Shown: positions 19,253-47,170 of the stretch, piece after piece | Numbering within the stretch: the stretch's first letter is position 1 | How the letters are laid out: each line of letters begins with the position of its first letter | Assembly: GCA_029862165.1 (NCBI GenBank) | Contig: JAOTXU010000006.1 | Coordinates: 69,960 to 133,959, forward strand | From: Gammaproteobacteria bacterium | Lineage (GTDB): Bacteria; Pseudomonadota; Gammaproteobacteria; Steroidobacterales; JABDKV01 | DNA: 64,000 nucleotides | Direction: 5' to 3' | Position numbers and translations under genes: made by a program | Notes under the pieces: generated by a model | The model's database searches: none | What the model saw: the letters and a program-made list of their open reading frames with translations, nothing else | Told to the model about the DNA's origin: nothing

Positions 19253-20227
19253 GTGGCAAATAAACGGCCACCATTAAACAAAAATATGCGCGGGCTGCGG
19301 GCGCGGCTGGGTGTCTGGGCCAAAAGAAGACAGGGGCCCGACGGCGAACAGCTGCGTCTGCACAGCGGCAGAATTTACATACTTCCAAACGCACAGGGTA
19401 TCGCATTTGGCTTTTTGCTACTGGCCATGCTCGTCGGCGCGATGAATTACAACAACAGCCTCGGTCTGGCCGTTACTTTTCTGATGACCGGCGTGGGTTT
19501 GGTAGCGATGCATCATTGTCAACGCAACCTGTCCGGTCTGTCGATCCGGTATGGCGGCGATCAACCGGCTTTTGTCGGGCAGAAAGCTGTCTTTCGTATT
19601 ACGCTGATTAACGATTCGAGTGCACCGCGCTTTGGCTTGACGCTAAAACGCGATGAACAGGTCAGCAAAACCTTGCATCTGGAACCGGGCGAACACGCCA
19701 CACTGACCCTGGAGGTCGACGCCGTAAAACGCGGCCATCTGGCACTGGATCGGTTCAGACTCTATACGACTTTTCCGCTCGGCCTTTTTCATTGCTGGGC
19801 GTGGATACACCCACAGTGGCAAACCATTGCCTACCCGCGTCCGGCACCGCCAGGTTCTAGCCCGCCCCCACAACATAGCGATACCGGTGGCGCGCACGAC
19901 GACAGTCAGGGCGACGCGGACTTTGCCGGTCTGCGGACGTATCGTTCCGGGGACTCGCCGCGACACATTGCCTGGAAGGCCTATGCCCGCGGACAGGAGA
20001 TGCTGGTCAAGCAATACACCGGCACGGATGTCACTTCGCACTGGTTTGACTTTGATTCCCTGAAACAAATGGATCTGGAGACGCGGTTATCTCAGCTATC
20101 GCGCTGGGTGGTCGATGCCAACCTGCAGGGCAACGCCTGGGGCCTGAGACTACCAGCCGAGACGATTGAACCCGATCTGGGTCCGGCGCACCGCAACCGC
20201 TGTCTCACCGCGCTGGCGCTAATATGA
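19253..20227 (+). CDS. DUF58 family protein
   Basis: DFAGLRTYRSGD...IAWK motif, N-terminal TM pair; follows moxR. Confidence 0.88.
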   Translation: MANKRPPLNKNMRGLRARLGVWAKRRQGPDGEQLRLHSGRIYILPNAQGIAFGFLLLAMLVGAMNYNNSLGLAVTFLMTGVGLVAMHHCQRNLSGLSIRYGGDQPAFVGQKAVFRITLINDSSAPRFGLTLKRDEQVSKTLHLEPGEHATLTLEVDAVKRGHLALDRFRLYTTFPLGLFHCWAWIHPQWQTIAYPRPAPPGSSPPPQHSDTGGAHDDSQGDADFAGLRTYRSGDSPRHIAWKAYARGQEMLVKQYTGTDVTSHWFDFDSLKQMDLETRLSQLSRWVVDANLQGNAWGLRLPAETIEPDLGPAHRNRCLTALALI

Positions 20228-22191
20228 AATACCCGGACAGAATCGATGCAGCGAGACTGTACTGGACGCTCGGTTGTCTCGGCGCCGCCTCGTTGCCACA
20301 TCTGATACATCTGCCGGCATGGCCAGTTGGGCTTATTTTGTTGACGGTGTTGTGGCGCTGGATGGTCCAACGCGGTGCTTTGCCCATGCCCGGCAAATAT
20401 ACGCGCCGGCTTTTGGCACTGACAGGTTTCGCAGGTGTTTTTCTGAACTACGGCACCATCACCGGTCTGGATGCCGGCACTGCGCTACTGGTCGTCATGG
20501 CGGCGCTAAAACTGATGGAAACACACACGGTGCGCGACCTGATCGTGTTGTTGCTCATCAGTTACTTTTTGATCGTCACACAATTTCTATTTGGCCAGTC
20601 CATCCTGATCGCGATCTATTCGATCCCGGTCATCTGGCTGATTACAACAGCATTGTCGCAAGTCAGCAGTCGCGCAGCGCCGATGCCCTGGCGCAGGGCG
20701 TTTGCGCGCTCCGGCGTATTGCTGATCCATGCGTTACCACTCATGCTAATTGCGTTTCTGTTGTTTCCCCGCTTATCCGGACCGTTCTGGTCCATTCCAC
20801 GCAGTGACAACACGGCGATGAGCGGTATTAGCGATGAAATGACCCCCGGCAGCATCAGCCGTCTGCTGCAATCCGATGCGGTCGCATTTCGCGTGCGTTT
20901 TGACGACGTTGTCCCGCCACCGGAACAACGTTATTGGCGTGGACCGGTACTCAGTAACTTTGATGGCAGTACGTGGTCACTGTTTCAGGAGGACGATCGC
21001 TTTATCAATCCAAGAAGTGTGGATCGTATTGGCAACCGGGTTGATTATGAAATTACGCTGGAGCCCCATCAACGCAAGTGGTTATTCGCACTGGAACAGG
21101 CTAATCCGCGGCAACTACCGTTGAATTCCTACATGACTAGCGACCGCCGATTACAGCGCGACAGCCCCATCACGCAGCTATACCGTTATCGTCTCGAATC
21201 CTGGCCCGAGCATTACGCTGACGCCAATGCCGCCGCATGGACCCTGCGCCGCGATACGCAGTTTAGTAGAACCAGAAACAAGCGTGCACAGGAAATGGCG
21301 CAGAGCTGGGCAGCACAAACTGACAGACCCGTCGAAATCGTCAATCGCGCATTGCGATTGTTCCGCGAACAGGAATTCACTTACACGCTGACACCACCCA
21401 TTCTGGATCAGAATAATCCCGTCGACGATTTCCTGTTTTCAACCCAGCGTGGTTTTTGTGAACACTATGCATCGGCTTTCACTTTAATGATGCGTGCCGC
21501 AGGCGTCCCCGCACGTGTGGTCCTTGGCTACCAGGGTGGCGAATTAAATCCGTACGCCCAGCACATGACAGTCCGTCAATCCGATGCGCACGCCTGGTCC
21601 GAAGTCTGGTTGCTAGGACGCGGCTGGGTACGCGTCGACCCGACCGGCGCGGTAGCGCCAGAACGCGTGGAACTGGGTGTCGAAGGCGCATTGGGCGATG
21701 GCGAGTCGTTACCGGGATTGTTTCGTGCTTATGCCTGGATGCGTCAGCTACAGTTTGGCCTGGACGCCGTCAACAATGGCTGGAACCAATGGGTGCTGGG
21801 TTTTGACGGGCAAAAACAAAACACAGTCCTCAAGGCATTGGGTATGAAAAGTCCAAGTCTGCGCAAGATGCTGTTTACCATGATTGGCCTGATGATACTG
21901 GTGCTCGCCGGTGTCGCCGCACACCTGCTATGGCAATATCGCCCGGTCCGACCCGATCCGTCGAGTCGTACTTACCGGCGTTTTTGTAAGAAGCTCGCCG
22001 GCATCGCCGACGCACGCAGGGACAGTGAAGGCCCGCTGGACTACGCGCGACGAATCGCAGATGTCCGACCTGCCCTGGCCGGTCCGGTCAACGCGATAAC
22101 GAGGCTATACCTCAACCTCCGTTATCTGCCCGAACCCCGAGACACCGACCTCGTTCGCTTCAAGCGCGCAGTCCGCACCCTCCGCGTTTAG
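20224..22191 (+). CDS. TgpA-like membrane transglutaminase (DUF3488 + transglutaminase + DUF4129)
   Basis: N-terminal TM helices; GFCEHYASA (catalytic Cys), GYQGGE, DAHAWSEV, WVRVDPT. Confidence 0.92.
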   Translation: MKYPDRIDAARLYWTLGCLGAASLPHLIHLPAWPVGLILLTVLWRWMVQRGALPMPGKYTRRLLALTGFAGVFLNYGTITGLDAGTALLVVMAALKLMETHTVRDLIVLLLISYFLIVTQFLFGQSILIAIYSIPVIWLITTALSQVSSRAAPMPWRRAFARSGVLLIHALPLMLIAFLLFPRLSGPFWSIPRSDNTAMSGISDEMTPGSISRLLQSDAVAFRVRFDDVVPPPEQRYWRGPVLSNFDGSTWSLFQEDDRFINPRSVDRIGNRVDYEITLEPHQRKWLFALEQANPRQLPLNSYMTSDRRLQRDSPITQLYRYRLESWPEHYADANAAAWTLRRDTQFSRTRNKRAQEMAQSWAAQTDRPVEIVNRALRLFREQEFTYTLTPPILDQNNPVDDFLFSTQRGFCEHYASAFTLMMRAAGVPARVVLGYQGGELNPYAQHMTVRQSDAHAWSEVWLLGRGWVRVDPTGAVAPERVELGVEGALGDGESLPGLFRAYAWMRQLQFGLDAVNNGWNQWVLGFDGQKQNTVLKALGMKSPSLRKMLFTMIGLMILVLAGVAAHLLWQYRPVRPDPSSRTYRRFCKKLAGIADARRDSEGPLDYARRIADVRPALAGPVNAITRLYLNLRYLPEPRDTDLVRFKRAVRTLRV

Positions 22192-37321: not shown

Positions 37322-37962
37322 GGGGGGTCGTCCTGATATCCGGCTCGGGCAGCAATTTGCAGTCATTAATTGACACCTCAGAACAGAGCAAAATGGACAT
37401 ACGTGCCGTGTTCAGCGATCAGGCAGAGGCGTACGGTCTGGAACGAGCACGGACCGCGCATGTGCCGGCACATTTTGTGGATCCTGGCCAGTACGCCGGC
37501 CGCGAGGAATTCGATCGCGAGTTACAGGGACAGATCGATGCCTATGAACCGCAATTGCTACTGCTGGCCGGTTTCATGCGCATCCTCAGCCCACAATTCG
37601 TCAATCATTTTGCCGGACACATATTGAATATCCATCCCTCGCTGTTGCCACGGTACCGTGGCCTGCACACTCACCGACGCGTCCTGGAGGCCGGTGACCG
37701 GCAGCACGGCTGCAGCATACATTTCGTCACAGACGAACTGGACGGCGGCCCGTTGATTGCGCAGGCCCAGATAGATGTGCTGGCCCAGGACGATGAAACC
37801 ACCCTTTCAGCGCGGGTTCAGCAGCGGGAGCATAAGCTGTATCCGCTGGTTGTGAGCTGGTTTGCCACCGAACGGCTACGGACGCATGACGGGGTGGCCT
37901 GGCTCGATGGCGAACCCCTGTCCAAACCAGTGGTCTATGCTCAAGACGAGGAGATTCGATGA
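37318..37962 (+). CDS. purN: Phosphoribosylglycinamide formyltransferase
   Basis: [31 protein letters not shown]. Start GTG 37318. Confidence 0.96.
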
Positions 37963-38648
37963 GAACAGTGCTGCTGACATTGCTGATACTGCCATTGCAC
38001 GTGGCGGCGGCTGACATAGAGCCATTTACGGCACATTACGATCTCCGCTTTTCCGGACTCGCCGGTGTAGCGGTTACCACATTGAGTCAGGATGGCGAAG
38101 GCAGCTTTGTCCTGGAAAACCGTACTCGGGCGAAGGGACTGGCACGTCTTGCGCGACCGCGTGATGCCATCGAGCGCAGCGAGTTCGTTGTTGATACTGA
38201 CCGATTGAAGCCGGTGTCGTTCTTATCCAAAGACGGTACTAAACGCAATAAGCGTGGTAGCAGTATCGATTTTGACTGGTCGGCAAGTAGTGCCAACACG
38301 CAATACAAAGGCGAGACACGCACACTCAATCTGGAAGACGGCATGCTCGATCGCCAGCTCCTGCAAATTGCCATGATGTCCGATCTTTCCAACGGTGTCA
38401 CGGATACCAGCTATACCGTAATCGATCGGCACAGCACAAAAACCTACGCGATCTCAGTGCTCGCAAGAGAAACTATCGAAGTGCCTGCAGGCAGCTATGA
38501 CGTCGTCAAGATTAGGCGTGAGCGTGCCGGATCAAGTCGCTCTTCGATATTGTGGTGTGCGCCCTCGCTGGGATACGTCACAGTAAAAATGCAACAACTC
38601 AAGGATGGCAAGGTCATCGGCACCCTGTCGCTGACAGAAATCAGCTAA
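37959..38648 (+). CDS. DUF3108 family secreted protein
   Basis: Signal peptide, beta-rich, E.I.VPAG.Y; follows purN as commonly seen. Confidence 0.8.
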   Translation: MRTVLLTLLILPLHVAAADIEPFTAHYDLRFSGLAGVAVTTLSQDGEGSFVLENRTRAKGLARLARPRDAIERSEFVVDTDRLKPVSFLSKDGTKRNKRGSSIDFDWSASSANTQYKGETRTLNLEDGMLDRQLLQIAMMSDLSNGVTDTSYTVIDRHSTKTYAISVLARETIEVPAGSYDVVKIRRERAGSSRSSILWCAPSLGYVTVKMQQLKDGKVIGTLSLTEIS

Positions 38649-39223: not shown

Positions 39224-40312
39224 TCAGTCCTCTACCACGATCTTCGGAAATAGCTGGCTATAATCACGTGTCTTTTCGGCGAGACGGGCAGAGATTCCAC
39301 GCGCGATGTCGAAATACGCAGCAGCCAGATCACTATCGGGATCCGACACAATCGTTGGCTGACCGGAGTCCACTTGCTGACGAATACGAATATCCAGTGG
39401 CAACGCTCCCAGGAATGGCACGTCATACTCCGCAGCCATGCGCTCTCCACCACCGGCATCGAACACATGTTCTTCATGGCCGCACTGGGAACAAACGTGG
39501 GTCGACATATTCTCCACAACACCCAATACGTTGACCTCGACTTTTTCGAACATGCGCAATCCCTTACGCGCGTCTAGCAAGGCGATGTCCTGTGGTGTCG
39601 TTACAATGACCGCCCCGCTGACGGGAACCTGCTGCGATAATGTCAGCTGTGTATCGCCCGTACCTGGTGGCATGTCGACGATCAGATAATCCAATTGGCC
39701 CCAGTTTGTGTCATTTATCAGCTGATTCAGGGCCTGGGTCACCATCGGTCCACGCCAAACCATCGGTTGATCTTCGTTGATGAGAAACCCGACTGACATG
39801 CAGACAACACCGTGCGCTTCCAGTGGTTCCAGACTCTTGCCATCACGGCTTTCTGGCCGTGCACCGGGAATACCCAGCATCCGCGGCTGGCTGGGGCCAT
39901 AAATATCGGCGTCCAGGATACCGACGCGGGCACCGTCCGCGGCCATTGCCAACGCAATGTTGACTGCCGTCGTGGATTTACCGACTCCGCCTTTGGCGGA
40001 AGCGACCGCGATAATATTACCTACACCGGGCAAAGGCTTTAGCTGTCCCTGTACCGCATGCGACACAATTTCAGTTTTGATCTCCACGCACACTTCGTTC
40101 ACATCAGGTAACGTTTCCAGTCGGCTTTTCACGCCATCAACGAGCGCGGGATGATAGCGGTCCGCGGCAAAACCGAGCTTGATGCGCAGCGTGACCACCG
40201 GACCGTCAATCTGCAGGTCCTCGATGACGCCACCTGTCACCAGATCGGTGCCCAGATAGGGATCGACGAGATCGCTTAGCGCGGCCTCTATTTGCTTGCG
40301 AGTTGTGCCCAC
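39224..40312 (-). CDS. apbC: Fe-S cluster carrier ATPase ApbC/Mrp
   Basis: [35 protein letters not shown]. Confidence 0.96.
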
Positions 40313-40541
40313 AGGTGCCTCTGGAACGGGATTGTCCTCGGATTGGAGACTTACAGAGCGCTGTTGTCAATCTGAGCACCCGGCCGGTCAGACAATAGCG
40401 TCTACAGTCGCTTGCGTTACTATGTAGAATACGGTTCGCTGAAACTCGCGACCACGCTGCCCCGATAGGGCTGCGGTGTTCAGAGATCAGGCGCTGCGCA
40501 CAGGCAGCTAAGCACATTGGAGATGCCAGGATCGCCCCGCG

Positions 40542-42938
40542 ATGAAGTTTTTTAGCGGCATGAAAGCCGACAAACTGGTCAAGCAGCTCATCGCTGTCCG
40601 GCATCACGATCAGTCTGATGAAATCACAGACGTGTCTGGCAAGATCATCGCGCTCGGGCCGTCAGCAGTGTCCCATGTTATAGATGCGTTGGGTCACTCC
40701 GACAAAACTCAGACGCTAACTTTTGTAGAGATCCTGTCGCAGCTGTTGGACGCCAAAACGCTTCCGCAATATGTCGAGGGACTGAAGAACGATAGCCAGC
40801 GGGTTGTTTCCGGCGTAGCCTGGGCACTCGCCGGTCGGAGCACCTACGATCCCAACAAACTGCTGGATTTGTTGGAGGACCCGGAAATTCCCAAAGCCAC
40901 TCTGATGCAGGTGCTAGGCGCTCATAAGGATAAGCTGGACGCGCGCGTCCTGTTACGCCACGCCTATGAACTGGGCGCCACCGAAAAAGAAGCCTGTATG
41001 AAACTCGTCGGCGAAATGGCGAACGATGCCATGGTGCCGGACCTTGTGGGCCGACTCAGTGGCAAAGACGCGATGATGCGGGTACACATTATTCAGATCC
41101 TCGCCCGATTTCGCCGCCCGGATGTTCAGAATGCCCTGCAACAACAGCTTACCGATCGCAGCAAGCTGGTACGCCAAGCGGCGCTGTCGGCTTTGTCAAA
41201 GATGGCTGAAGGCCTCGATTTATCACTTCTCGGAAAGCTACTGGAAGACCCCGAGATTGAAGTGCAGAACAAAGCCGTGGAAGTCCTGATTCGAATCAAC
41301 CACCCCGACACGGTGCAACATCTGATCGGCGCGCTAAAAAGCGAAAACGAATATTCACGCCGCTCCGCAGTTGAGGTGCTAAATGAAGTTGGTGACAGCA
41401 ACTCGGTAAAAATTCTGCTCGACGCACTAAGAGATGACGATTGGTGGGTGCGGACACGCGTGACCGACGCGTTGTCAAAAATCGGTGGGCCACGCGTGGT
41501 CGATGCAGTGCTTCAATTGATCAAGGATCCGGATGAGGACATCCGACGCGCAGCCATCGAAATTCTCAACGCGACAAAAGATGAGCGTGCCGCCAAATTC
41601 CTGATCGAAGCCACCCGCGATGAAGACTGGTGGGTGCGTGAGCGCGCGGTGGATGCGCTGGCCGAGATGGGCGATAAAAAAGCCGTTCCGGCCCTGATGC
41701 GTATGCTTAATGAAAATGAAAAATCGATCCCCGTGGCGTTGCGTGGTCTGGCCGTATTGGGTGATCACACGGCACTCGATGCGATCGCAGTCATGCTCGG
41801 AAAACCGGATCGCGATATCCGCATCGAGGCAATACGGGCGATGGTGCGATTAGCCGACGAGAAACGTGCCGAAAGCGTGATAGGAAAGGTCCACGGCATG
41901 ACCGTTGATCCCGATGGCCACGTCGCGACGGCCGCCCAACGGGGCTGCGAAGAACTTGACGCACGCTTTTCGGCCACAGCAGTCGCAGAAAATCTCAAGG
42001 CCGCGCAGATGGCGGAACCGGCACATACCATGCTGGTCGATGCCGACGCAGCGATTGCCGCAGCAAAACAAGCCGTGGGCGTTGATTTGAATTCGCTGCA
42101 AGCCGGAGATCTGATTGAGGGCCGGTACCAGTACATCCAGCAAATCGGCAAGGGCGCCTTTGGCACTGTCATCCTGGTGGAAGATACTGTTGTTGGCGAA
42201 CGCCTGATTCTCAAGTTCCTCAACAAGGCCATTGCCGACGACGAAGAAATGCTGCAGCGGTTTGTCCACGAACTGCGCTTTTCCCGCAAGATTACCCATC
42301 GTAATGTGATTCGTATTTACGATTTCGTCCATCTTTCGGGCTTATATGCCATATCTATGGAGTATTTCCCTTCGCATGCGCTGAGCGCGGAAATGAACGC
42401 AAGAAAACCGCTGGAACTTGGACGCGCATTGCAAATCACTGCTGATATCGCCAATGGCATGTCGGTTGCACACCAGGTCGGCATCGTGCACCGTGATCTA
42501 AAACCGGCAAACGTTCTGGTCAACGAGGAGCAAGTCGTAAAGGTCGTTGACTTCGGTGTTGCCGCGGCACATGGCGGCGGCGATGCTGGATTGACAAAAA
42601 CCGGTTACGTAATCGGCTCGCCAAAATACATGGCGCCCGAGCAAATTCTTGGCAAGAAAGTCGATCAACGCGCTGATATTTACAGCCTGGGCGTCATTCT
42701 GTACGAGCTACTCACCGGTTTGCCGCCGTATACCGACGGCGATCACATGGCGGTGATGTATCAACATGTACAGGGAAATGCCAAACCGATTGCGGAAGCA
42801 AACCCGAATATACCTGCCGATGTCGCGGCCCTGGCCACCAAAACAATGGCCGTGGACAAGATGCAACGCTATCATTCCATGGAAGAACTACGCGACGAAC
42901 TGGAAGCTCTGGTGGAGAAACACCTTGGCGCGGATTGA
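40542..42938 (+). CDS. HEAT-repeat Ser/Thr protein kinase (Hanks type), cytoplasmic
   Basis: About 480 aa of HEAT units (DDDWWVRTRVTDAL, DEDWWVRERAVDAL, DEDIRRAAIEIL). C-terminal kinase has IGKGAFGTV, LILK, HRDLKPAN, DFG, GSPKYMAPE, DIYSLG. No TM segment. Confidence 0.92.
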   Translation: MKFFSGMKADKLVKQLIAVRHHDQSDEITDVSGKIIALGPSAVSHVIDALGHSDKTQTLTFVEILSQLLDAKTLPQYVEGLKNDSQRVVSGVAWALAGRSTYDPNKLLDLLEDPEIPKATLMQVLGAHKDKLDARVLLRHAYELGATEKEACMKLVGEMANDAMVPDLVGRLSGKDAMMRVHIIQILARFRRPDVQNALQQQLTDRSKLVRQAALSALSKMAEGLDLSLLGKLLEDPEIEVQNKAVEVLIRINHPDTVQHLIGALKSENEYSRRSAVEVLNEVGDSNSVKILLDALRDDDWWVRTRVTDALSKIGGPRVVDAVLQLIKDPDEDIRRAAIEILNATKDERAAKFLIEATRDEDWWVRERAVDALAEMGDKKAVPALMRMLNENEKSIPVALRGLAVLGDHTALDAIAVMLGKPDRDIRIEAIRAMVRLADEKRAESVIGKVHGMTVDPDGHVATAAQRGCEELDARFSATAVAENLKAAQMAEPAHTMLVDADAAIAAAKQAVGVDLNSLQAGDLIEGRYQYIQQIGKGAFGTVILVEDTVVGERLILKFLNKAIADDEEMLQRFVHELRFSRKITHRNVIRIYDFVHLSGLYAISMEYFPSHALSAEMNARKPLELGRALQITADIANGMSVAHQVGIVHRDLKPANVLVNEEQVVKVVDFGVAAAHGGGDAGLTKTGYVIGSPKYMAPEQILGKKVDQRADIYSLGVILYELLTGLPPYTDGDHMAVMYQHVQGNAKPIAEANPNIPADVAALATKTMAVDKMQRYHSMEELRDELEALVEKHLGAD

Positions 42939-44031
42939 CTCCTTTCTAAAACTCGGTCTGGCTCAAGGTTGCTCCGACGTTCACCTTGCTGTCGGAATCC
43001 CGCCAATGCTGCGCATGAGCGGCGACCTATTGCCCATTAAGTTCCGCGATCTGTCAGGAACAGAGCTGGAAAGCTATGTCACGGAAATTCTGACTCAAAA
43101 TCAGCAAAAAACCTTTGCCGAGGGTCGCGACATCGATTTCTCTTACGTTACTGACGACGGCGCCAGATTTCGGGTCAATCTCTATCGCAAAACCACCGGT
43201 GTCGGTGCAACTTTTCGCAATATTCCCAACGAGATTCCCAACATGGACAAGCTGGGGTTGCCATCGGTCGTTCGTGACCTCACTGACTATCATCAGGGAA
43301 TGATCCTGGTCACGGGGGCTACCGGTACCGGTAAATCGACGACGCTGGCATCGATGATGGATCACATCAACACGACCCGTGCGCTAAACATCATTAGCCT
43401 GGAAGATCCTATCGAATTCGTACATCCGAGCAAAAAATCACAAGTTGTACAACGTGAATTGGGCACTCACCTGACTAGTTTTGCCGATGGATTGAGAGCG
43501 GCCCTGCGTGAAGATCCGGACGTGATACTGGTCGGCGAAATGCGTGACGCAGAAACCATCTCGATGGCTCTGACTGCCGCTGAGACAGGTCATCTGGTCC
43601 TGGGTACCCTGCACACCACCGGTGCAGTAAAAAGTATCGATCGCATCATAGATGCTTTACCCAGCGATCTGCGAGAACAAACAAAGAGTTTTCTTTCGAC
43701 TAATCTTAATGCCGTAATCTCTCAGGTCTTGTGCAGAACTGCTGATCGGCGGGACAGAAAAGCCATTTTGGAAATAATGGTCATGACGCGTGCGATCGGA
43801 AAACTCATCTCTACCGATCAAACTCATCAGATCCCGTCACAGTTACAGACCGGTCGTCACCTCGGCATGCAACAACTCGATCAGGCATTGCTCGAAGCCG
43901 TGCAGCGCAAAGAAATAGACCCGAACGACGCGTATGCCTATGCCGCGGACAAGCAACCATTCCGGCGATTTGTTACAGACAGCGATCTGGCAGCACCCAT
44001 GGCTGAGCAAACCACATCTGACGCAGAGTAA
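42925..44031 (+). CDS. PilT/PilU-family ATPase (copy 1)
   Basis: SDVHL, FRVN, GATGTGKST, EDPIE, LREDPD, GEMRD, TLHT. Start TTG 42925 after GGAG, overlapping the kinase stop. Confidence 0.92.
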   Translation: MARIDSFLKLGLAQGCSDVHLAVGIPPMLRMSGDLLPIKFRDLSGTELESYVTEILTQNQQKTFAEGRDIDFSYVTDDGARFRVNLYRKTTGVGATFRNIPNEIPNMDKLGLPSVVRDLTDYHQGMILVTGATGTGKSTTLASMMDHINTTRALNIISLEDPIEFVHPSKKSQVVQRELGTHLTSFADGLRAALREDPDVILVGEMRDAETISMALTAAETGHLVLGTLHTTGAVKSIDRIIDALPSDLREQTKSFLSTNLNAVISQVLCRTADRRDRKAILEIMVMTRAIGKLISTDQTHQIPSQLQTGRHLGMQQLDQALLEAVQRKEIDPNDAYAYAADKQPFRRFVTDSDLAAPMAEQTTSDAE

Positions 44032-44034
44032 GAC

Positions 44035-45102
44035 ATGGCCACGATTTCTGATTTTCTGAGCATGACACTGGAACGGGACGCGTCGGACCTGCATTACATG
44101 GCCGGCGATCCGCCGCGAGTACGTCAGTACGGTGAGTTGCTACCGTTAGCCAACATAAAACTCGACGCGGAAAAAGTCAGACAATCGATTGAATCCATAA
44201 TTACGCCGAAGGCACGCCAGGAGTTGGAAGATAAAGACGGTGCGGACTTCGCTTACGAGTTAGCTGGCAAGGGGCGTTTCAGGGTAAACGTGTTGCGGCA
44301 ACTTAATGGTCTGGGTGCAGTGTTCCGCGCCATTCCCGAGACAGCGCTCACACTCGAACAATTAAACATGCCACGGGTCGCTCGCGATCTATGCAAGCAC
44401 CCGCAGGGCCTGATTCTGGTTACCGGAAAAACAGGCTCCGGCAAATCGACCACGCTCGCGGCGATGATCGACCACATTAACGCGAACCAGAAGGGTCATA
44501 TTATTACGATCGAGGACCCGATCGAGTTCACGCACGAGCGTAAACAATGCCTGATCAGTCAACGGGAAGTCGGAGTGCATACACCCAGTTTTGCCGCTGC
44601 ACTTCATTCCGCGCTTCGCGAAGACCCTGATGTGGTTCTGGTCGGCGAGATGCGCGATCTGGAGACCATGAGCATTGCCGTCACGGCCGCAGAAACCGGA
44701 ATCCTGGTGATGGGCACACTACACACCAATGGTGCGCCGCCGACGGTCGACCGCATCGTCAATACTTTCCCGGCAGACAAGCAGGCGCATATCCGCTCGA
44801 TGCTCTCAACGTCGATACGCGGCGTGATCTCGCAGCAGCTAATACGCCGTAAGGACGGCAAGGGACGCGTGGCCGCACTGGAGATACTCGTGAATAATTC
44901 CGGGGTCGCTAATCTGATCCGACAGGGCAAAATGGACCAGTTGGGCTCGGCGATGCAGGCCGGTGCCCAATCGGGCATGCAAACTATGGATGGGGCACTA
45001 AAGCGCCTGGTGCAGAAGCGCATCATCACCGGCGAAGTGGCTTACGAGAAGGCTTTCGACAAGCAAAACTTCAAAGACTACGCGCCGACCGCCGCGGCCT
45101 GA
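44035..45102 (+). CDS. PilT/PilU-family ATPase (copy 2)
   Basis: SDLHY, FRVN, GKTGSGKST, EDPIE, QREVG.H, LREDPD, GEMRD, TLHT. Confidence 0.92.
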   Translation: MATISDFLSMTLERDASDLHYMAGDPPRVRQYGELLPLANIKLDAEKVRQSIESIITPKARQELEDKDGADFAYELAGKGRFRVNVLRQLNGLGAVFRAIPETALTLEQLNMPRVARDLCKHPQGLILVTGKTGSGKSTTLAAMIDHINANQKGHIITIEDPIEFTHERKQCLISQREVGVHTPSFAAALHSALREDPDVVLVGEMRDLETMSIAVTAAETGILVMGTLHTNGAPPTVDRIVNTFPADKQAHIRSMLSTSIRGVISQQLIRRKDGKGRVAALEILVNNSGVANLIRQGKMDQLGSAMQAGAQSGMQTMDGALKRLVQKRIITGEVAYEKAFDKQNFKDYAPTAAA

Positions 45103-45172
45103 TCTGTCAGCACAAGGCAGCGCAGCATGGCATAATCGCTGCGCCGCATCATGCGGTTAGTTGTGTGATCTG

Positions 45173-47170
45173 ATGGAAAAAAGCCGCAAAATCCTAGTCA
45201 GCACAGCCCTGCCCTACGCCAATGGGTCGTTGCATATTGGGCATATGGTCGAACATATCCAGAGTGACATCTGGGTGCGTTTCCAGCGACTACGCGGGCA
45301 TCAGTGCATATCTGTTTGCGCGGACGACGCCCACGGCACACCTATCATGCTGGCGGCGCGCGATGAGGGAATCACGCCAGAAGAGCTGATCGCCCGGTTC
45401 TATGCCGAACACCGGCGTGACTTCGACGACTTCAACATCAGCTTTGACAATTACCACAGCACACATTCCGACGAGAATCGCGAGCTTGTGGAGCACATCT
45501 ATAGGATGCTCGATAAAAACGGTCATATCGACCGAAAAAGTATCGTGCAAGCTTACGACGAGAAGGAAGGCATGTTTTTGCCGGATCGTTACGTGCGTGG
45601 CACCTGCCCGAATCCGGACTGTGGCGCTGCCGACCAGTACGGCGATAGTTGTGAGGTCTGTGGCTCGACGTACAACCCGGCCGATCTGAAAGACGCCATA
45701 TCGGTCATCTCCGGTACAAAACCGGTCGAACGCAAGTCGGAGCATCTGTTTTTTCGACTCGCCAGTTTCGAAACCATGTTGCGTGGGTGGGTCGGTCGCT
45801 TACAGGAAGGCATTGCCCGCAAATTGGACGAGTGGTTTGACAGTGGTTTGCGGGACTGGGATATCTCCCGCGATGCACCGTATTTCGGTTTCGAAGTGCC
45901 GGGGCTGCCAAAACACTACTTTTATGTCTGGCTGGACGCACCTGTCGGCTACATGGCCAGCTTCAAGAACCTGTGCGACCGTACCGATGGTCTCGATTTT
46001 GATACCTACTGGAAGCCCGATAGTGACGCCGAGGTCTATCACTTTATCGGTAAGGACATCGTGTATTTCCACTGCCTGTTTTGGCCGGCCGTGTTGCACG
46101 GCGCGGGCTTTCGTGTTCCGACGTCGGTCTTTGCTCACGGCTTTCTGACGATCAACGGCCAGAAAATGTCCAAACGTCGGCGCACATTTATCACGGCCAG
46201 ACAATACCTGGACAATCTTTCACCCGAGTATTTGCGTTACTACTACGCCGCTAAACTGGGGCCCGGTATCGATGACATCGATATGAATATTGAGGATTTC
46301 GTCCAACGCGTTAACTCTGATGTTGTCGGCAAGCTGGTCAATATCGCCAGCCGCTGCGCCGGATTTATTAGCAAGCAGTTTGACGGGAAACTTGCTCCGA
46401 AATTACCTGAACCGGATCTATATCAGCTATTTGCCGATGCCGGTGATCGCCTGGCCGAGTTGTATGAGTCCCGTGAATACTCTCGTGCAATGCGAGAGAT
46501 CATGGCGTTGGCAGATCAGGCAAATCGTTACATTGATGAGCACAAACCGTGGCAGGCCATCAAAGATCCGGCGCGACATGCAGAAGTGCATGGCGTGTGC
46601 ACACAAGGTCTCAATTTTTATCGCGCACTAATAATTTATCTAAAACCGGTACTGCCAGGCATCGCCAGTGCCAGCGAAGACTTTTTCAACAGCCCCCCAC
46701 TGAACTGGGATGACGTTTCGGCTCCACTGCTCGCAACATCGTTGCAGCGGTTCAAACCACTGATCCAACGTATTGATATCAAGAAGGTCGAAGCCATGCT
46801 ACTTACTCCGTCTGAATCCAAACCGGAACAACGAAGTGTAAAAAATGAGATCGATATCGATCAGTTCCTGAACGTAGAACTGCGTGTCGCCAGGATTGTA
46901 AAGGCTCAAGCAGTAGAGGGCGCGGACAAGTTACTGGAGCTGCAACTGGATCTGGGTGACGAAAAGCGTTCAGTGTTCGCCGGCATACGCTCGGCCTACC
47001 AGCCTGAGGACTTGCAGGACCGGCTTACGGTGGTGGTGGCAAATCTCAAGCCACGGAAGATGCGTTTTGGCATATCCGAGGGCATGGTTCTGGCCGCAGG
47101 ACCGGGTGGCGAAGATATTTTTCTGATCAGCCCCGACACTGGAGCCAAACCGGGCATGCGTGTCCGATGA
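45173..47170 (+). CDS. metG: Methionine--tRNA ligase
   Basis: [12 protein letters not shown], Zn knuckle, WDISRD, GKDI, KMSKR (variant), C-terminal tRNA-binding domain. Confidence 0.97.

Follow-up and report, generated by a model that had tools for sequence, protein, structure and literature searches.

We report that a HEAT-repeat serine/threonine kinase of the Hanks type and two PilT-family ATPases, here called A1 and A2, form a conserved three-gene unit (the module) in the Gammaproteobacteria. The unit was examined in a 64,000-nucleotide (nt) stretch of DNA, referred to here as the window, from a bacterium of the GTDB order Steroidobacterales (GenBank assembly GCA_029862165.1, contig JAOTXU010000006.1, positions 69,960 to 133,959 of the forward strand), whose assembly comprises 3.34 Mb in 49 contigs and derives from a sediment metagenome. 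We propose, with moderate confidence, that these genes represent the smallest form of a widespread and so far undescribed module for threonine phosphorylation, which has two dedicated PilT-derived ATPases at its center and works alongside type IVa pilus retraction rather than replacing it.

In a sample of 400 Gammaproteobacteria genomes drawn evenly across the class, full-length kinase orthologues with 40-48% identity were found in 50, of which 46 come from about 27 further families, so that about 13% of the class sample carries the module. When A1 was searched for independently in the same 400 genomes, 49 had both genes, one only the kinase, one only A1, and 349 neither; the genome with only the kinase has a completeness of 72% and its kinase is a fragment, and in the A1-only genome A1 lies at the start of a contig. 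We also fetched 38 loci outside the order of the window, and in 36 of the 37 that could be evaluated for adjacency A1 and A2 follow directly after the kinase, the exception (G254) having the kinase and A1 on different contigs. An earlier note on this DNA, made from the letters of the window alone, had made its proposal depend on the three genes occurring together elsewhere, and both the counts and the adjacency bear this out. The three genes are thus supported as a conserved functional unit, and the unit keeps its integrity in different surroundings, as apbC and metG, which flank it in the window, are not the flanks of the triplet outside the order. Homologues of the kinase number more than 5,500 at E <= 1e-30. 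A sample of 140 genomes from the phylum yielded no further carrier, and the module is, in these data, a feature of a subset of Gammaproteobacteria, abundant in those of sediment and soil. Acidihalobacter prosperus is a cultured species among the carriers.

Within the order of the window conservation is tighter still. The kinase, A1 and A2 are contiguous, with gene order and orientation unchanged, in 53 of 61 sampled genomes, representing 24 families, and the eight genomes in which an A1 orthologue is missing are seven small ones without any PilT-family gene and one (G017) with only a fragment of the kinase. Here the surroundings are preserved as well: the succession purM-purN-(DUF3108)-dcd-apbC, then kinase-A1-A2, then metG-rnfABC is essentially invariant in the loci checked (L067-L102), and a scan of genome contigs gave more than 547 related loci, the named ones belonging to Steroidobacteraceae, Woeseiaceae and unclassified Gammaproteobacteria metagenome-assembled genomes. 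Kinase-A1-A2 is one conserved operon-like unit under strong purifying selection. The module is conserved more strongly than the neighboring housekeeping genes. The member of the synteny block lying between purN and dcd in the window (37959-38648) is a 229-amino-acid (aa) protein with a signal peptide, 26-40% identical among relatives and labelled DUF3108-like without a domain check.

The module and its immediate flanks are laid out in the window as follows.

39224..40312, minus strand: apbC, iron-sulfur cluster carrier, the divergent upstream flank (Pfam ParA/NUBPL, 345.6 bits, and FeS_assembly_P); this flank is kept in the order-wide loci.

40313..40541, plus strand: leader/promoter region of the module, 229 nt (promoter scan; alignment with relatives G002, G003 and G004).

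40542..42938, plus strand: HEAT-repeat Hanks Ser/Thr kinase, 798 aa (Pfam, AlphaFold2 (AF2) model, Foldseek, orthologue motifs).

42925..44031, plus strand: A1, a 368-aa ATPase of the PilT family that forms a separate clade, with TTG as start codon (TIGR01420, alignment to 3JVU, tree).

44035..45102, plus strand: A2, a 355-aa ATPase, likewise of the PilT family and forming another clade (TIGR01420, alignment to 3JVU, tree, consensus).

45161..47170, plus strand: metG, methionyl-tRNA synthetase, the downstream flank, with its start at TTG 45161 or ATG 45173 (Pfam tRNA-synt_1g, 507.9 bits).

Re-reading of the open reading frame (ORF) coordinates upheld the description in the earlier note of three co-oriented, tightly coupled genes at 40542-45102 with an upstream region of their own, the gap at 40313-40541 being real. 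The TTG start codon of A1 (42925-42927), with GGAGAA 7 nt upstream as read from the sequence, precedes the TGA of the kinase (42936-42938), giving a 14-nt overlap, and the TAA of A1 (44029-44031) is separated by 3 nt from the ATG of A2 (44035). The TTG start is supported because all A1 orthologues align from residue 1-2, beginning MxRIDxFLKLG. Within the 229-nt gap a promoter scan finds a promoter-like TCTACA-18-TAGAAT, and an alignment with three relatives of the same genus or family (G002, G003 and G004) shows that an extended -10-like element, TGTAGAAT at 40423-40430, and the CGCTGAAA that follows it are kept in all three, the remainder of the apbC-kinase spacer having diverged among them. 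Two more conserved blocks common to the three relatives, GATTnGAGAC and GTCAATC, lie at 40340-40375 and could be the promoter of apbC or else an operator. Between A2 and metG no significant terminator structure was detected (z = 0.21), and read-through into metG is therefore possible.

The earlier note had described the module as inserted between apbC and metG, which are indeed direct divergent neighbors in E. coli. The word holds only in a historical sense: the position is fixed order-wide, the guanine-plus-cytosine (GC) content of the module equals that of its flanks and there are no meaningful flanking repeats, and any insertion is therefore ancient and fixed. A recent mobile insertion was rejected on the same grounds, the only repeat being a 17-nt match. 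This match is an imperfect inverted repeat, 82% complementary, whose arms (40476-40492 and 45097-45113) bracket the module almost exactly, the left arm lying 50 nt ahead of the start of the kinase gene and the right arm overlapping the A2 stop; it is probably due to chance.

Both ATPases are full-length members of the PilT/PilU family. Against TIGR01420 (curated cut-off 319.1 bits) A1 scores 424.7 and A2 451.1 bits, covering profile positions 2-341 and 2-342 of 343, and both align end to end with Pseudomonas aeruginosa PilT (PDB 3JVU) at 315 and 351 bits respectively. A1 has Walker A GATGTGKST (clade consensus GxTGTGKS), and its Walker A, Asp box, Walker B and His box are all intact. A2 has Walker A GKTGSGKST with intact Asp box and Walker B, and its His box reads ETGILVMGTLHT, the first His being replaced by Ile in 26 of 26 orthologues according to the clade consensus. 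The earlier note had seen intact catalytic motifs in all three proteins, which holds for the kinase and A1 and goes slightly too far for A2. At the position of the AIRNLIRE motif, where the PilT encoded elsewhere in the same genome reads AIRNLIREGK, A1 has AIGKLISTDQ and A2 has GVANLIRQGK, a partial NLIRxGK remnant, and the two share QRExGxH where PilT and PilU have QREV..D. A1 also carries a C-terminal extension with the motif DKKxFQRFV(T/S)(D/N)xx(L/I)LP, which contains T351 and is kept in 25 of 26 class-wide sequences; the tail threonine is shifted by three residues in one sub-lineage of the order, and the tail is of low confidence in the AF2 model, with predicted local distance difference test (pLDDT) values below 50 from residue 355.

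A maximum likelihood tree of 81 sequences, obtained with a quick search, resolves five clades, namely PilT, A1 (support 100), A2 (97), and PilU with, as its sister, a third paralogue resembling it (PilX3; support 100 for the two together). A1 and A2 are weak sisters (support 80) with congruent internal topologies, and A1 orthologues are 56-75% identical across the class as against about 45% to paralogues. We accordingly rejected an assignment of A1 and A2 to PilT in the strict sense, as they fall outside the PilT clade, lack AIRNLIRE and do not occupy the yggS-proC locus, and likewise to PilU, as the PilU/PilX3 clade is separate, the A1 extension is shorter with another motif and A2 has no extension.

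Nor are A1 and A2 the only such genes available to the cell. The genome holds five TIGR01420 members, and on contig C34 (17107-20403) pilT (19363-20403), pilU and the 351-aa PilX3 stand in a row adjoining yggS-proC and near pilGHIJ, so that canonical pilT-pilU lies beside yggS as the earlier note had stated, and its concern that A1 and A2 might be the genome's only pilT and pilU falls away. Each of these three genes is conserved, with clear orthologues, in eight further genomes of the order, and five PilT-family ATPases are therefore the standard complement there. Contig C25 carries pilB-pilC-pilD, pilA and pilRS, contig C19 an MSHA-like and a Tad cluster, and contig C27 a gspE. The earlier note had found no pilin, PilB, PilC or secretin gene nearby, which agrees with our reading of the ORFs at 36-50 kb of the window, those genes being located on other contigs. 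With a complete canonical set elsewhere in the genome, A1 and A2 are therefore additional.

The kinase is modeled in three parts. Pfam reports four HEAT_2 matches and a Pkinase match at residues 529-782 (171.8 bits), and in the AF2 model (mean pLDDT 78.9, most HEAT blocks about 85-93) residues 1-490 are predicted as a continuous all-helical hairpin solenoid, joined through a flexible or disordered linker (490-503) to a PknB-like kinase domain at about 525-795. The model contains no transmembrane segment, sensor domain or PASTA domain. Its best Foldseek matches are to Mycobacterium tuberculosis PknB (TM-score normalized to the target 0.71-0.75), and apart from PknB-type kinases the fold search brought up nothing but designed alpha-repeat proteins, so that no hidden domain was revealed. 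The Hanks motifs (GxGxFGxV, the ILKF lysine, HRDLKPxN, DFG, APE and an LTKTG activation loop) are invariant in 27 class-wide and 48 closer orthologues, and the kinase looks active from its sequence. The best-conserved part of the HEAT region is 265-390, with DDWWVR / DEDWWVRE repeats, and is likely a binding surface. Membership in the Stk1/PknB PASTA kinases was rejected: against NF033483 the protein scores 271.9 bits, over the kinase domain only, where the equivalog cut-off is 450, and it has neither a transmembrane helix nor PASTA domains. Full-length HEAT-kinase paralogues of about 28% identity, without adjacent PilT-like ATPases, occur at two loci (L124 and L125, in genomes G211 and G377), and the HEAT-kinase architecture therefore exists outside the module.

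In other lineages the module is accompanied by further genes, which we found by clustering the flanking ORFs of the 38 distant loci followed by tblastn. The most frequent, in 34 of the 38, is a weakly DUF6812-like gene of about 160 aa lying directly upstream in the same orientation. In 17 loci a 222-aa FHA protein comes directly after A2; a fusion of a class III cyclase with FHA is present in 9, a divergent FHA-GAF-HD-GYP protein in 10 and a PP2C phosphatase in 11; at least 26 of the 38 have some FHA-type gene, and PP2C and FHA genes are not found beside the module in the window. Judged by its gene content, the fuller cluster appears to be a threonine-phosphorylation toolkit of writer, eraser and readers with cyclic-nucleotide outputs arranged around the two ATPases, and the order of the window keeps only a stripped three-gene core of it. 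Literature searches combining PilT with HEAT repeat and threonine kinase, or with FHA, PP2C and HEAT, and searches for DUF6812, returned no relevant paper, nor does the literature that can be searched describe control of a PilT-like ATPase by a Ser/Thr kinase. The module is thus undescribed in that literature, and it may represent a so far unstudied accessory that links type IV pilus motors to phosphorylation.

The genome of the window does encode other phosphorylation genes. About 21 kb upstream of the window start, a second phospho-signaling operon (C21:44451-48630) encodes a membrane Ser/Thr kinase of 848 aa with a CHASE2 domain, a PP2C phosphatase of 275 aa and an FHA protein of 260 aa that is made up of two parts. 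Its FHA protein (C21:47848-48630) was considered and rejected as a partner of the module, having full-length orthologues in 116 of the 400 genomes, many without the module, and matching the module-linked FHA genes over the FHA domain only. A cyclase-FHA protein on contig C27 (210833-211729) was not supported as a dedicated partner, its family being present in 20 of 40 genomes with the module and in 12 of 40 without it.

The most likely role of the module, which we propose with moderate confidence, is to provide the type IVa pilus system with an attached pair of motors, accessory or regulatory in function and controlled by phosphorylation. A TIGR01420 member is present in 326 of the 400 class genomes, including all 50 carriers, each of which has at least three, and the best TIGR01420 score lies in the canonical PilT range in 47 of the 50. 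The module is missing from all 74 PilT-less genomes, a result with a chance probability of about 1e-5 if phylogeny is ignored. Teipen et al. modeled and tested a PilC-PilT-PilU stack in which PilT bridges PilU to the platform, with AIRNLIRE at the modeled PilT-PilC interface and a PilU-specific C-terminal extension gripping PilT (bioRxiv 10.1101/2025.10.30.685630). By analogy, A1 and A2, having no AIRNLIRE, are therefore unlikely to be motors that dock on the platform by themselves. In P. aeruginosa, replacement of the first His-box His of PilT (H222A) slows retraction and causes more falling off of the machine with function kept, and the state of PilT correlates with surface-induced cyclic AMP (cAMP), PilT being proposed as part of cAMP surface sensing (PMC10187167). 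The invariant His-to-Ile change in A2 suggests, by the same comparison, a slowed ATPase.

The substrate, the direction of control and the phosphosites are inferences, which we would put together as follows. A1 and A2 would act as a paired motor, either as stacked hexamers of the kind modeled for PilT and PilU or as a mixed ring, in which A2, with its remaining NLIRxGK part of the platform-facing motif, would be the adaptor, and A1, with a conserved disordered C-terminal tail like that of PilU, the stacked partner. The HEAT solenoid would dock the kinase on this pair, and the kinase would phosphorylate threonine or serine residues, the candidates being the A1 tail around T351, T259 of A2 and T685/T687 of its own activation loop. 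Phosphorylation would then switch the assembly of A1 and A2 or the way in which they engage PilT and the platform. Where the cluster is fuller, PP2C would reset the mark, and it would be read by FHA proteins that are joined to a class III cyclase or an HD-GYP enzyme, by fusion or by linkage, coupling the state of the motor to cAMP or cyclic di-GMP. In the order of the window the kinase-A1-A2 core alone is left, fixed between apbC and metG and with its own promoter-like element. A phosphorylation-controlled motor had been suggested in the earlier note, and the FHA and PP2C neighbors in relatives strengthen that suggestion.

Several observations weigh against this reading. The co-occurrence with PilT is weak evidence, as 82% of the class has PilT and the lineages are not independent. 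Neither A1 nor A2 has a basic pair equivalent to R35/K36 of PilT, which binds the PilU tail, and direct transfer of the PilT/PilU stacking model is therefore uncertain. At the position of T351 in A1, 5 of the 24 sequences compared from the order have Pro, Ala or Glu, with Thr or Ser nearby. The genome of the window has no DUF6812-like gene, and the families of its C21 FHA and C27 cyclase-FHA proteins are common in module-less genomes too; as these families occur without the module, no read-out partner can be assigned in this genome. Lastly, the sequencing runs that hold the stretch are three of sediment DNA and none of RNA.

Four other explanations have to be set beside the accessory motor pair. 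The most serious, possible in our view and clearly the less probable, is that A1 and A2 are a sensor rather than a target, or a free-standing machine acting on a non-pilus substrate, with the HEAT-kinase reading their nucleotide or load state and writing phosphothreonine for FHA-linked cyclic-nucleotide enzymes. It would account for the loss from both ATPases of AIRNLIRE, the motif modeled at the PilC interface, for the lack of any pilus gene beside the module among the genes examined in order-wide and distant loci, and for the DUF6812-like small protein (34 of 38 loci) being the most constant extra partner; it would also suit the cyclase or HD-GYP outputs borne by the FHA readers and the proposed part of PilT in cAMP surface sensing in P. 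aeruginosa (PMC10187167). Yet every carrier has canonical PilT-family genes as well and the module never occurs in a genome without PilT, A1 and A2 retain the full PilT fold and motor motifs, and the order of the window has lost the DUF6812-like and FHA partners while the core is still under strong selection. A stand-alone alternative retraction or extension motor for an MSHA-like pilus, a Tad pilus or a type II secretion system (T2SS), with the kinase as its switch, is unlikely. The genome does have MSHA-like and Tad clusters (C19) and a GspE (C27), and PilT and PilU of Vibrio cholerae serve both competence and MSHA pili, but the module never adjoins msh, tad or gsp genes in the loci examined, and the loss of AIRNLIRE argues against direct docking on a platform. 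A motor dedicated to MSHA was rejected, since MshL (TIGR02519) is above cut-off in only 21 of the 50 carriers and absent from 29, nearly all carriers being at least 90% complete.

That the adjacency is due to chance, A1 and A2 being ordinary redundant duplicates of pilT and pilU and the kinase unrelated, is strongly disfavored and very improbable. PGAP does name A2 orthologues 'type IV pilus twitching motility protein PilT', and multiple PilT paralogues are common, as in Geobacter, Myxococcus and Neisseria; against this stand the near-perfect co-occurrence, the order and orientation kept in two genomic contexts and more than 28 families, the translational coupling of the genes, and the distinct, deeply branching and congruent clades of A1 and A2. 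We regard as equally improbable a role in anti-phage defense, whether as a kinase-based abortive-infection unit or, pili being phage receptors, as a pilus-controlling system borne by a mobile island. The kinase domain matches the PADLOC models PD-T4-6 and mad6 and the NCBIfam models MADS6 and PglW, but these matches cover the generic kinase domain only and, wherever NCBIfam sets a curated cut-off, fall far short of it (159 against 460 bits for Mad6, 112 against 990 for PglW), the ATPases have no meaningful match to a defense model and no partner genes are present. The setting is moreover one of order-wide housekeeping genes, with core-genome synteny, no GC anomaly, no integrase and only the 17-nt, 82% inverted match described above, and the defense unit that the earlier note had entertained was abandoned.

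Motors of the PilT family are among the strongest molecular motors, and their regulation is poorly understood. If the kinase gates or reads the motor pair, the module would add a new regulatory layer to type IV pili, with consequences for twitching, DNA uptake and surface sensing, and would give a well-defined set of three proteins in which to study how phosphorylation controls hexameric secretion ATPases. The stripped version found throughout the order shows which parts are indispensable. If the module is instead a motor-state sensor or a pilus-independent machine, it would be a previously unrecognized bacterial route from a mechano-enzyme to second-messenger signaling.

Among known systems, the module resembles PilT-PilU of P. 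aeruginosa, V. cholerae and Acinetobacter in having two adjacent genes for PilT-family hexameric ATPases with full-length similarity to PilT, in the C-terminal extension of A1 and the loss of AIRNLIRE, both as in PilU, and in being found only in genomes that also have PilT. It differs in that A1 and A2 form separate clades, lie away from yggS and are always preceded by a HEAT-repeat Hanks kinase, in the invariant His-to-Ile change of A2 and an A1 tail motif (FxRFVTD) unrelated to the PilU tail, and in that the genome carrying it already has pilT, pilU and a third PilU-like gene. With PknB/Stk1-type Hanks kinases the module kinase shares the fold, all catalytic motifs and 30-33% identity over the kinase domain to M. 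tuberculosis PknB, but it has no transmembrane segment and no PASTA domains, its N-terminal half being a 490-aa HEAT solenoid.

The threonine-phosphorylation pathway of the type VI secretion system (T6SS), with PpkA, PppA and Fha1, is a close parallel to the fuller clusters, which likewise encode a Hanks kinase, a PP2C and an FHA reader together with a machine component that is presumably their target. In the module, in contrast, that component is a pair of PilT-like ATPases rather than the T6SS, the kinase is soluble with a HEAT solenoid and not a membrane receptor kinase, and the FHA readers bear cyclase or HD-GYP outputs, with no adjacent PP2C or FHA gene in the window. Finally, PilT-cAMP sensing in P. 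aeruginosa (PMC10187167) also links the state of a retraction motor to a cyclic-nucleotide output, and relatives of the module adjoin cyclase-FHA and FHA-GAF-HD-GYP genes; the P. aeruginosa route, however, runs through PilJ/Chp and CyaB with no Ser/Thr kinase, while for the module the corresponding link is suggested by its neighborhoods in other genomes.

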